Assembly (NCBI GenBank): GCA_003504275.1
Contig: DOAO01000009.1
Location: 24,405-88,404, forward strand
Origin: Patescibacteria group bacterium
Lineage (GTDB): Bacteria; Patescibacteriota; Minisyncoccia; Phycocordibacterales; UBA12445
Direction of reading: 5' to 3'
Length of the DNA stretch: 64,000 nt
The notes under the pieces are model-generated. The model saw nothing but the letters and a program-made list of their open reading frames with translations. It was not told the DNA's origin and ran no database searches. Both the position numbers and the translations under genes were made by a program. Shown here piece after piece: positions 12,422 through 14,336 of the stretch (positions are counted from its first letter, which is position 1; each line of letters starts with the position of its first letter).

Positions 12422-12438
12422 TTCGTGGTCTTATATAC

Positions 12439-12504
12439 TATGTAAATTGGAACTCTTTGGTGGAGAATATAAGGGGAATTGGTGGGTTAGGGTAAAATAA
12501 AACC
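12439..12504. repeat. Cassette 3' repeat, copy A (tRtgtaaattggaactctttggtggagaatataaggg..ggtaaaataaaacc)
   Basis: About 90% identical over ~65 nt to 13058-13133 and 13690-13766. Confidence 0.75.
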
Positions 12505-12530
12505 TCCCAAGTAAGGGAGGCTAATTTTTT
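12497..12530 (-). terminator. Terminator of cassette gene 1
   Basis: cctccc-aagta-agggagg hairpin with T-tracts on both sides. Confidence 0.6.
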
Positions 12531-12539
12531 AAAATTTAA

Positions 12540-12968
12540 TTATAACTCGACGCCGAGAACGAGAATGTTTGAGTGTCCACACAAGATGCCATCTTCGCAT
12601 GTCATAGCAGAAAGAAAAGCTTCCTTTTTTTTCGCATGATCCAGGAAAATGCCAGGTATTTTTTTACTCTTAACGCTTGAGGCTTCCTCTGTTGCAAGAA
12701 TTGCCCAAAAATCAAATTCGGATAGAAGTTCTTTGTAGATTTTTAAAAAAGCTTCTAATTCGTCAATTGTTGCTTGACGACAGCTGCGCTGTTGCAGTCC
12801 CTCTTTGACCTCATTTAGAAGTTTCTCTCCGTTATATTCGCCCTCGATAACCCTTAGGTCGTGATGTACATAATTTAACCGCCCAATTAACTTCTTTCCA
12901 TTAACAACAAAGGGGAATTTTAAAATGGTTTGCGAGTATATGGGAAAGTCCTTGTTGAAATTTGTCAT
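12540..12968 (-). CDS. Cassette gene 1: hypothetical protein (142 aa)
   Basis: RBS AAAGGAGGAGGG 4 nt before the ATG at 12968 (MTNFNKDF...). No recognisable domain. Confidence 0.55.
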   Translation of the reverse strand: MTNFNKDFPIYSQTILKFPFVVNGKKLIGRLNYVHHDLRVIEGEYNGEKLLNEVKEGLQQRSCRQATIDELEAFLKIYKELLSEFDFWAILATEEASSVKSKKIPGIFLDHAKKKEAFLSAMTCEDGILCGHSNILVLGVEL

Positions 12969-12990
12969 ATTCCCTCCTCCTTTATTTTTC

Positions 12991-13057
12991 AAAAAACTAT
13001 TTGTTCAATAAAAAAGATACCATGTATTTGAATAAATGTAAATAGAAAAACTTTTTT
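12991..13057 (-). promoter_or_regulatory. Conserved cassette promoter/leader block P1, with the imperfect palindrome ttgttcaacaa just before the RBS
   Basis: Near-identical blocks precede all three cassette genes. Minus-sense candidates TTTACA-17-TATCTT or TAGTTT, then TTGAACAAATAGTT. Confidence 0.5.
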
Positions 13058-13133
13058 GACCTTACGTTATGTAAATTGGAACTCTTTGGTGGAGAATATA
13101 AGGGAAATTAGTGAATTTAGGTAAAATAAAACC
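13058..13133. repeat. Cassette 3' repeat, copy B; starts with gaccttacg, matching the 3' end of tRNA-Glu (att-core-like)
   Basis: Alignment with copies A and C. Its first 8 nt equal the plus-strand complement of the tRNA-Glu acceptor 3' end (tgaccttac at 14377-14385). Confidence 0.75.
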
Positions 13134-13160
13134 CCTTAGCGAAGGGGTATTTGGGGGAAT

Positions 13161-13598
13161 CTACTTGTAGTAATCTTCTTTAGCTTCTTCTGGTTCTTCA
13201 AGTGTATTGTAGTCGATTGTAATTTCTTCACTAGACTTAATATCGCATAAGGCGTAATAGTTACAGTTACGATGATAGGCATTGGGAGTTTTTGAATGAT
13301 TGAGATACCAGCCAATCTCCATGCGACCAAAATCTTTTGGACAAATAAGCTCATCGCCCATATCAACACAATACTTTCTAAAAAATTTCGGAACATCTTT
13401 TTTGTTCCTTACGAATGAATCCATGGTTGCTTCTGTTTCATAACTAAAGAGTCTAAGATATGTTCCTTTTTTGATATTGTGTGTTGCAAAAACACCTATG
13501 CCACATTTTGATACCTTTAGGACAAAAGAAAACTCCGTTGTCTTGTTTTTCTTTTTTGAAATATTTTCGGTTACTTTTTTTACCGATTTTATTGTCAT
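13161..13598 (-). CDS. Cassette gene 2: SET-domain protein-lysine methyltransferase
   Basis: SET motifs GIGVFA (GxG), NHSKTPN (NHSCxPN) and EEITIDY (ELxxDY). RBS AAAGAGGAGG upstream. Confidence 0.7.
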   Translation of the reverse strand: MTIKSVKKVTENISKKKNKTTEFSFVLKVSKCGIGVFATHNIKKGTYLRLFSYETEATMDSFVRNKKDVPKFFRKYCVDMGDELICPKDFGRMEIGWYLNHSKTPNAYHRNCNYYALCDIKSSEEITIDYNTLEEPEEAKEDYYK

Positions 13599-13621
13599 AA
13601 ATTTCCTCCTCTTTAATTTTT

Positions 13622-13689
13622 AAAATAACTATTTGTTCAACAAAAAACTACCATTTATTTGAATAAATGTAAATAGAAAAAACTTTTTT
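13622..13689 (-). promoter_or_regulatory. Conserved cassette promoter/leader block P2
   Basis: About 85% identical to P1 and contains the same ttgttcaacaa element. Confidence 0.5.
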
Positions 13690-13766
13690 GACCCTACGTT
13701 GTGTAAATTGGAACTCTTTGGTGGAGAATATAAGGGAAATTAGTGAATTTAGGTAAAATAAAACCC
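13690..13766. repeat. Cassette 3' repeat, copy C (starts gaccctacg)
   Basis: Alignment with copies A and B. Confidence 0.75.
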
Positions 13767-13793
13767 GCTTTTTATAGCGGATTAAATTTATCT

Positions 13794-13994
13794 TTAAGGA
13801 AGGTAAGTTCTAATCTTTTTTATAATTTCTTCTAACTCTTTATTTTCGTTAATATCTTTTGATCTTAATTGTCTAAGAACACAGATTAATGATAATAAAC
13901 TTAGACCCATTCTCTTTATATCATCATTTTCCTTGCTGAATAATTCAAAGTCTTCTTTTATAGATTTTTTGAATTCCTCAAATGTTTTTACCAT
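13794..13994 (-). CDS. Cassette gene 3: small hypothetical protein (66 aa)
   Basis: ATG at 13994 follows AAAAAGGAGG. The longer ORF-track start would translate the RBS itself. Confidence 0.4.
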   Translation of the reverse strand: MVKTFEEFKKSIKEDFELFSKENDDIKRMGLSLLSLICVLRQLRSKDINENKELEEIIKKIRTYLP

Positions 13995-14027
13995 CACGTT
14001 ATGTACCTCCTTTTTTATTTTCAAAAT

Positions 14028-14066
14028 AACTATTTGTTCAATAAAAAACTACCATTTATCTGGTTG
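14028..14066 (-). promoter_or_regulatory. Conserved cassette promoter/leader block P3 (partial)
   Basis: ataactatttgttcaataaaaaactaccatttat matches P1 and P2. Confidence 0.45.
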
Positions 14067-14093
14067 AAAGTAAAGATAAAAAAAATCCGACAA

Positions 14094-14336
14094 CCTTACA
14101 GGGAATCTTTCTCTACGAGAACAGTATAGGTTTCCCATTTTTTCGGATTGAAAAATCCTCAAAAACAAGGGAGAACCTTTTCGATTCCCTGACGTAAGCA
14201 AAGCAGTTTAAATAAGCAGGGAATCGGTCACACATAAATTTTCTTCGAAAATTTTGCTCGACCCCGCCTCAGCTCCCATTCTTACAGAATGGGTCCCGCT
14301 TCCGGCTTTCGATTCCCTGTAAGGTCTATAAATACA
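14094..14336. repeat. Four partial copies (10-26 nt) of the tRNA-Glu 3' end (T-loop to acceptor) in alternating orientation: 14094-14107, 14181-14199 (inverted), 14218-14227, 14311-14336 (inverted)
   Basis: Each matches cttacagggaatcg or its reverse complement cgattccctgtaag. Confidence 0.6.

Follow-up and report, generated by a model that had tools for sequence, protein, structure and literature searches.

Integron cassettes are typically promoterless and are expressed from a common Pc promoter, and the 'morons' of phages are units of a promoter, one gene and a terminator that are inserted between other genes. In T4-type phages, promoter early stem-loops (PeSLs) constitute a repeated motif of terminator stem-loop, strong promoter, Shine-Dalgarno (SD) sequence and start codon located by small ORFans, and the gain, loss and swapping of cassettes have been proposed to occur through them (PMC2839356, PMC4122927). 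Tandem islands of Dehalococcoides are bounded by direct repeats of the ssrA 3′ end, with 16 islands that have an integrase module (PMC3146451), and integrase-less cis-mobilizable elements (CIMEs) of the ICESt1 type are accreted at att sites (PMC5704250). Here, we describe an array of three short genes with reiterated flanking sequences on the 3′ side of a tRNA-Glu gene, in a 64-kb chromosome segment (hereafter, the window) of Parcubacteria group bacterium GW2011_GWF2_38_76 from Rifle groundwater. The array is real and unusual. Genomes of Parcubacteria and of the Candidate Phyla Radiation are tiny, and their gain of accessory genes is poorly understood. If the array was assembled from cassettes, as we tentatively propose, units of ~630 bp with their own promoter and terminator at a tRNA gene would represent a minimal device for gene capture and expression, with a logic unlike that of the promoterless cassettes of integrons, and a cellular counterpart of the PeSL shuffling of phages.

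Read along the minus strand, the locus comprises an intact tRNA-Glu(CUC) gene (14376-14449), a bidirectional terminator hairpin (14340-14369, both strands), ~250 nt of non-coding DNA that contains an element termed E, and then the units P3-g3-T3-R2, P2-g2-T2-R1 and P1-g1-T1-R0, where g is a gene, T its terminator, P a promoter block and R a repeat. The terminator of a convergent LOG-family gene lies 3′ of R0. R is a block of 89 nt in three copies (R0, 12417-12505; R1, 13046-13134; R2, 13678-13766), and P is a block of 78 nt, also in three copies (P1, 12974-13051, with the annotated feature spanning 12973-13051; P2, 13605-13682; P3, 14006-14083). A first-pass annotation of this DNA, made from the sequence alone, had reported a repeat and a promoter block of ~65 nt each; the repeats are genuine, and both turned out to be longer. 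R1 and R2 are identical at 87 of 89 positions. The 35-nt core of R was matched three times in the window against an expectation of 0.00, and a 21-mer of P three times against 0.06; both blocks are confined to the array, with no further copy within the 64 kb. From the terminator tail to ATGACAA, spacers 1 and 2 are ~92% identical over ~180 nt in a gapped alignment, and the R-core-P junction (~165 nt) is near-identical between genes. The shared stretch includes the terminator T-tail, R, P, GGAGG and the initial 7 coding nt, ATG ACA A. Homology thus begins within the terminator and stops 7 nt past the start of each open reading frame (ORF), and the terminator stems and the ORFs differ among the three units. 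The array sequence is 99.96-100% identical across independent assemblies and is therefore not an assembly artefact.

Each unit has a near-consensus sigma-70-type promoter, a strong ribosome-binding site (RBS) and its own terminator stem. The predicted promoter in every P block consists of a −35 element TTTAC(A/T), a 17-nt spacer ending in TGG, and a −10 element TA(T/G)(C/T)TT. In P1, the −35 TTTACA is located at 13042-13037, TGG and the −10 TATCTT at 13022-13014, and the RBS GGAGG at 12977-12973. P2 has its −35 at 13673-13668, its −10 (TAGTTT) at 13650-13645 and its RBS at 13609-13605, and the corresponding elements of P3 are at 14074-14069 (TTTACT), 14051-14046 and 14010-14006. Terminator hairpins, all on the minus strand, were located at 12501-12522 for g1 (an intrinsic terminator with a unique stem and a T-tail in common with R), 13131-13148 for g2 and 13762-13783 for g3. 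The earlier description of three autonomous promoter-gene-terminator units with unrelated genes and a reiterated junction is thus confirmed as to the repeats and to the separate promoters and terminators. It had also placed the near-palindrome ttgttcaacaa, as a plausible common operator, just before the RBS in the leader block. A palindrome of the form TTGTT(G/A)AACAA is present in all three, beginning 1-2 nt downstream of the predicted −10 and ~23-24 nt upstream of the RBS; it is perfect only in P2 (TTGTTCAACAA, 13633-13643), with TTGTTCAATAA in P1 (13001-13011) and P3 (14034-14044).

As in PeSLs, the array repeats a sigma-70-like promoter, a stem-loop terminator, an SD sequence and a start codon next to ORFans. 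Unlike PeSLs, it resides on a Parcubacteria chromosome and has 3-4 copies at one tRNA-linked site, as opposed to ~50 dispersed in the phage; the block is also longer (~165 nt), the terminator stems vary between copies, and a motif resembling the 3′ end of a tRNA lies within the block. With integrons the array has in common single, unrelated genes in one orientation with a reiterated site between them, but the window lacks intI, attI and any attC-like folded palindrome, and a promoter and a terminator are present in each of the cassettes. The first-pass annotation had called the array integron- or island-like, while noting neither attC architecture nor intI. Integron identity fails on every defining feature tested: folds of R were not significant, and no recombinase domain occurs in the ORFs tested. 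The units resemble phage morons in being independent promoter-gene-terminator inserts and differ from them in that the array has no prophage context and morons have no common reiterated flanks.

On the basis of family assignments, homologs, G+C content and the context of the SET gene, which differ gene by gene, we consider g1, g2 and g3 to be unrelated and heterogeneous, with at least one of them relocated. The protein encoded by g1 (12540-12968, minus strand; 142 aa) has no match in Pfam, PHROGs, PADLOC or NCBIfam, and among 1.84 billion representative proteins its sole close match is itself, in addition to four remote homologs. An AlphaFold2 model built on a 4-sequence alignment had a predicted local distance difference test (pLDDT) score of 61, and Foldseek found no match to it in the PDB at E ≤ 0.001. 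One g1 homolog, in another genome (contig L018), has tRNA genes and an E element alongside. The g2 product (13161-13598, minus strand; 145 aa) matches PF00856 (E 2.6e-12) with 47.5 bits against a gathering cutoff of 22.4, shows 56 invariant columns with its Parcubacteria relatives among 10 homologs, and is by these family-match measures a predicted SET-domain methyltransferase. Its SET family is roughly 130 aa in length and 60-77% identical across Parcubacteria; in the relatives examined, the gene occupies ordinary operons, such as IleRS-...-SET-RecO, or a contig also bearing IF3/L35/L20, and neither R nor P was found beside it. The g2 protein carries an N-terminal extension of ~14 aa that is missing from most of the aligned homologs and starts with the ATG ACA of the P block. 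Sequence comparison supports a movement of the SET gene out of its usual operon context, with the extension fused to the P block. For g3 (13794-13994, minus strand; 66 aa), no match was obtained in Pfam, PHROGs, PADLOC or NCBIfam, the large protein databases lying outside this search. G+C content is 0.39 for g1, 0.33 for g2 and 0.24 for g3, and 0.36 for the window.

R0 is the distal and most diverged copy of R; no P block follows it, and it abuts the terminator of the LOG gene. It is 72% identical to R1 overall. Read on the plus strand, its left 24 nt agree at 6 of 24 positions (random level), its invariant core (12441-12475) at 35 of 35, and its right flank at 23 of 30. We calculated from these counts that the chance of an intact core is 0.77^35, or ~1e-4. 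The perfect core beside a 3′ flank of 23/30 points to constraint or gene conversion acting on the core. Beyond the terminator of the gene itself, R showed no significant structure on either strand; five of six folds of R had z scores between −1.3 and +0.45, and the minus strand of R0 had a z score of −2.5. We rejected R as a structured RNA, given that R1 and R2 folded no better than shuffles on either strand. On the plus strand, the three cores (12441-12475, 13070-13104 and 13702-13736) contain TTGGAA-15 nt-TATAAG, a possible antisense promoter that is directed into the 3′ ends of the cassette genes and has an atypical spacer of 15 nt.

Exact-pattern scans for R and P in genome, metagenome (two scans) and viral contig collections, which would miss diverged copies, gave no further copy, and none was present in the fetched loci except for an R-like element on contig L005, described below. 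The P block had no significant match among other promoters (those of LOG, a 184-aa gene, L005 and L021) and one weak match, the L018 promoter that precedes the g1 homolog, with which it has the −10 TAGTTT in common. Upstream of another g1 homolog (L021, 40-270), two tandem structured units begin with TGTAAT..GGTGGGA(A/G)TTGCACGACTGCCCAAC. Their start bears a weak resemblance to the plus strand of R (z 4.2), and we regard these units as an unconfirmed lead that may represent a related repeat family.

R1 contains a tRNA-Glu-like GACCTTACG at 13058-13066, and R2 contains GACCCTACG at 13690-13698. The string GTAAGGTCA is common to R1 and the 3′ end of tRNA-Glu, R2 matches it at 8 of 9 positions (GTAGGGTCA), and R0 has no such match within the repeat. 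The earlier claim that each 3′ repeat opens with GACC(T/C)TACG consequently applies to two copies of R and not to R0, whose left 24 nt are those that match R1 at only 6 of 24 positions. The tRNA-Glu 3′-end motif occurs in the same orientation at all three junctions, lying upstream of the −35 by 16 nt at R1/P1, 17 nt at R2/P2 and 18 nt at E/P3, and the E/P3 junction is otherwise unrelated in sequence to the other two. By our own estimate, made with no tool, a 7-mer would fall in that register by chance with a probability of ~3e-4. The fixed register of the tRNA-Glu fragment with P3 shows the junction of tRNA-like motif and promoter to be a conserved joint, as judged from sequence. Beyond the 3′ end of R0, a 21-nt stretch agrees with the tRNA end and trailer at 15 positions (P 0.057), with six mismatches that can all be read as transitions; this likeness is suggestive only.

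A contig of a relative (L005), from the metagenome-assembled genome CAZYTH01, is the only one with the same neighboring gene (LOG, 80% identical). Downstream of LOG, past one extra 80-aa ORF, it has an R-like element, inside which the contig ends. This element resembles R2 with a z score of 8.2, and it resembles the 3′ half of tRNA-Glu, from anticodon loop to trailer, to a degree reached by 0 of 2000 shuffles in one test and with P 0.0017 in another. R and the L005 element also have in common a 5-nt insertion relative to the tRNA. From this insertion, the R family is older than the split of the window and L005 lineages, and its tie to the 3′ half of tRNA-Glu is supported through L005. Three other relationships were considered and rejected. 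Global and local alignments of R as a full-length, decayed tRNA-Glu were not significant; R as a decayed 3′ end of E gave a z score of about −1, an alignment made by eye having failed the test; and g3 has no similarity to the 80-aa gene of L005 as a possible counterpart.

E (14086-14332, minus strand) is a multi-hairpin structure of ~245 nt that forms the head junction of the array with P3. Its 15-bp closing stem pairs 14093-14107 with 14311-14325, which are tRNA-Glu 3′-end sequence and its complement. The minimum free energy of E corresponds to z scores of −9.6 (plus strand) and −6.6 (minus strand). The 17-nt tRNA-Glu fragment previously described at the head of the array is exact over 15 nt (14093-14107) and matches at 16 of 17 positions over 14091-14107; since it is the outer arm of the conserved structure E, it is not an att scar. 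In L018, tRNA-Ala is followed by a homologous E (2038-2292, plus strand) built on the 3′ end of tRNA-Ala, and in the window a truncated E core follows tRNA-Pro (2956-3076, plus strand), upstream of a probable thrS start at 3103. A consensus fold of the three E cores (14196-14330 for the one beside the array) has compensatory changes in 14 of 35 pairs and one invariant G.U pair, and the closing stem covaries with the T-arm/3′ end of the neighboring tRNA. The conservation of G.U pairs points to the tRNA strand as the functional strand of E. A covariance model of E recovered these three copies only in 127 kb. In Rfam, only two tRNAs reach the gathering score, and E, R and the tRNA-like units match no family; at E ≤ 10, there were spurious microRNA and small RNA matches on the palindrome only. 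Matches to E or to palindrome motifs in the viral collection were dismissed as chance occurrences inside GC-rich coding DNA. The tRNA genes studied here are flanked by conserved structured elements outside Rfam that copy and complement the tRNA, and these elements may affect tRNA maturation, downstream read-through or recombination at tRNA loci.

In common with tRNA and tmRNA islands and with CIMEs, the array has serial modules 3′ of an intact tRNA-type gene, and its bounds may likewise be marked by copies of the gene's 3′ end beside an element-derived conserved motif. It differs from them in scale, as their repeats are ~20 bp and exact, the islands are kilobases in length and an integrase is often present, in contrast to a core of 8-9 nt and single-gene modules of ~630 bp here. 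As for direct repeats of the tRNA 3′ end, the 15-nt exact copy lies in E, R1 and R2 have 8-9 nt, and R0 has none within R proper; no cognate integrase was found within the window. Three window proteins of 268-342 aa were without assignment in the recombinase search. A 306-aa protein beside the L018 E was set aside as a candidate recombinase, having no Pfam match and no similarity to the window's 302-aa protein.

Tandem duplication alone cannot account for unrelated genes that are set between near-identical joints; some cassette-wise recombination is needed. We tentatively prefer an accretion model in which a recombinase supplied in trans acts at the tRNA-like core. This model accommodates the R-core-P joints, the R0-core-trailer end and the element in L005, and tandem islands at ssrA and tRNA genes, as well as CIMEs, provide precedents for it. 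Three self-contained expression cassettes would have joined the 3′ flank of tRNA-Glu serially, with the R-core-P joint (~165 nt) serving as the cassette recombination site and behaving as an attP-type joint that is re-formed between tandem insertions. Crossover would occur at the tRNA-like core, and the enzyme would be encoded outside of the window. The anatomy of the units suggests that the three genes are transcribed separately, insulated by their terminators, and probably co-regulated via the operator-like palindrome. Serial integration of cassettes at tRNA-Glu had been put forward in the first-pass annotation, and it retains in its favor the unrelated genes, the fixed-register motif, the link through L005 and the moved SET gene. 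Other findings weigh against accretion. Among the ORFs tested in the 64 kb, none has an integrase, recombinase or transposase domain, and alignment of R to the tRNA within the window is marginal (P ~0.01-0.07 for R1; R2 and R0 not significant). The tRNA-like core of R is only 8-9 nt and is missing from R0 proper, the fragment at the head belongs to the conserved E and is no plain att scar, and the exact-pattern scans of three collections gave no match to R. All of the recovered contigs are from one genome, with no example of differing cassette content. Gene conversion could explain the high identity of R and P equally well. To our knowledge, the islands moved by tRNA-site integrases are far larger than cassettes of ~630 bp. 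A variant in which a miniature system of Parcubacteria, with no local integrase, inserted single genes packed with promoter, operator, RBS/ATG and terminator serially at the tRNA 3′ end, using the ~165-nt R-core-P site, seems decidedly doubtful. Within that variant, it would be pure speculation that the arms of E, which copy and complement the tRNA 3′ end, direct targeting in the manner of a guide or bridge RNA.

Nearly as likely as accretion, and similarly tentative, is a PeSL-like shuffling in which R+P acts as a homology patch and cassettes are gained, lost or swapped by homologous recombination with no dedicated recombinase, possibly with mini-circles and DNA uptake, and with the tRNA-like motif mechanistically irrelevant. 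The architecture matches in its sigma-70-like promoter, stem-loop terminator, SD sequence, start codon and ORFans (PMC2839356, PMC4122927), the shared sequence begins within the terminator and stops 7 nt past the ORF starts, no recombinase was seen in the window, and in our assessment 165 nt at ~92% identity seems enough for RecA-type exchange. PeSLs, however, occur as dozens of dispersed copies in the plastic regions of T4-type phages, and here there are three or four at one chromosomal site; the shuffling explanation also leaves aside the fixed-register tRNA-like motif and the tRNA-half-like R element of L005, and no donor pool of R/P-flanked genes appeared in the collections scanned. We consider it unlikely that the locus is a static one, in which a single intergenic region was copied before three resident genes and maintained by gene conversion under one regulator, with no mobility. 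The identity of all assemblies, the restriction of the repeats to this site with no match in the public collections scanned, the common promoter with its operator-like palindrome and the status of SET as a normal gene of the lineage would all accord with it. It does not explain R0, a promoterless copy of R behind the last gene, nor the common terminator T-tail and first 7 coding nt, the relocation of SET with its foreign N-terminus, the scarcity of g1 homologs or the very low G+C content of g3, and in the nearest relative LOG is separated from the R-like element by a different gene. Some bacterial miniature elements carry outward-facing promoters, and the reiterated ~165-nt blocks have such a promoter. 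Repeated insertion of R+P as a mobile spacer between pre-existing genes is nonetheless highly improbable: the features of a miniature inverted-repeat transposable element (MITE) are lacking, in that no terminal inverted repeats or target-site duplications were seen and no dispersed copies occur in the 64 kb or the scanned collections, and an insertion would not be expected to provide an in-frame ATG ACA A and a terminator T-tail.

The window otherwise contains ordinary cellular genes, including those for ThrRS, DnaB, RecR, RmuC, ClpB, a class II (D/K/N-type) aminoacyl-tRNA synthetase and PrkA, and only two tRNA genes, tRNA-Glu and tRNA-Pro (2853-2926, plus strand). A 111-aa protein encoded at 15781-16116 resembles DNA-binding/transcriptional-activator families weakly, at a level below threshold, and is a candidate repressor for the palindrome of the P blocks. 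Every contig found to carry g1, g2, g3 or LOG represents the same genome as the window. One assembly has a single mismatch to the window, and the sole sizeable strain-level difference is in the ANAN16 scaffold, which has ~51 extra nt at a 19-nt repeat (window ~17349-17367; L014 577-627) near the 3′ end of a glycosyltransferase gene (16205-17344). In L005 (6053-10672), the ClpB and LOG-family genes share a strand and are separated by 1.5 kb. Their counterparts in the window (11678-21196) occupy opposite strands, and the 6.4 kb that separates them holds the tRNA-Glu region and the cassettes. Given this difference in spacing and orientation, the tRNA-linked region coincides with a rearrangement breakpoint. 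The long ThrRS ORF (GTG at 2985) overlaps the E core after tRNA-Pro, and its probable true start is an ATG at 3103 (MEKENKLHNIRHSLAH...). With that start, thrS would likely lie directly downstream of tRNA-Pro and E, with no obvious promoter or SD sequence of its own.

Further structures accompany the tRNA genes. A near-perfect palindrome with arms of ~45 nt (14308-14396) comprises the last 19 nt of tRNA-Glu, the trailer, the terminator at 14340-14369 and an inverted copy, its arms including 14308-14326 and 14378-14396, and a palindrome of the same design follows tRNA-Ala in L018 (1975-2060). In L018, the tRNA-Ala end and trailer recur as a direct repeat on the two sides of E (GGTCCACAAAATAA, 14 nt exact; 1991-2016 and 2316-2341), and the same contig has two small genes with a common 41-nt leader that is 85% identical (358-398 and 668-708). 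Upstream of tRNA-Glu, of tRNA-Pro (2733-2836, plus strand) and of the L018 tRNA-Val (L018 1-44), the tRNA's own 5′ half is copied. For tRNA-Glu, there are two such copies (14450-14661 and 14662-14900, minus strand) with a 211-nt period and a promoter spacer that is 97% identical. Within the 5′-half copies, tRNA identity ends inside the anticodon loop, and a GC-rich palindrome, CCGCCCG...CGGGCGG, is inserted in the D-loop. The D-loop palindrome is identical at 30 of 30 positions between the window and L018, and the 5′-half copies look systematic as opposed to the product of random decay.

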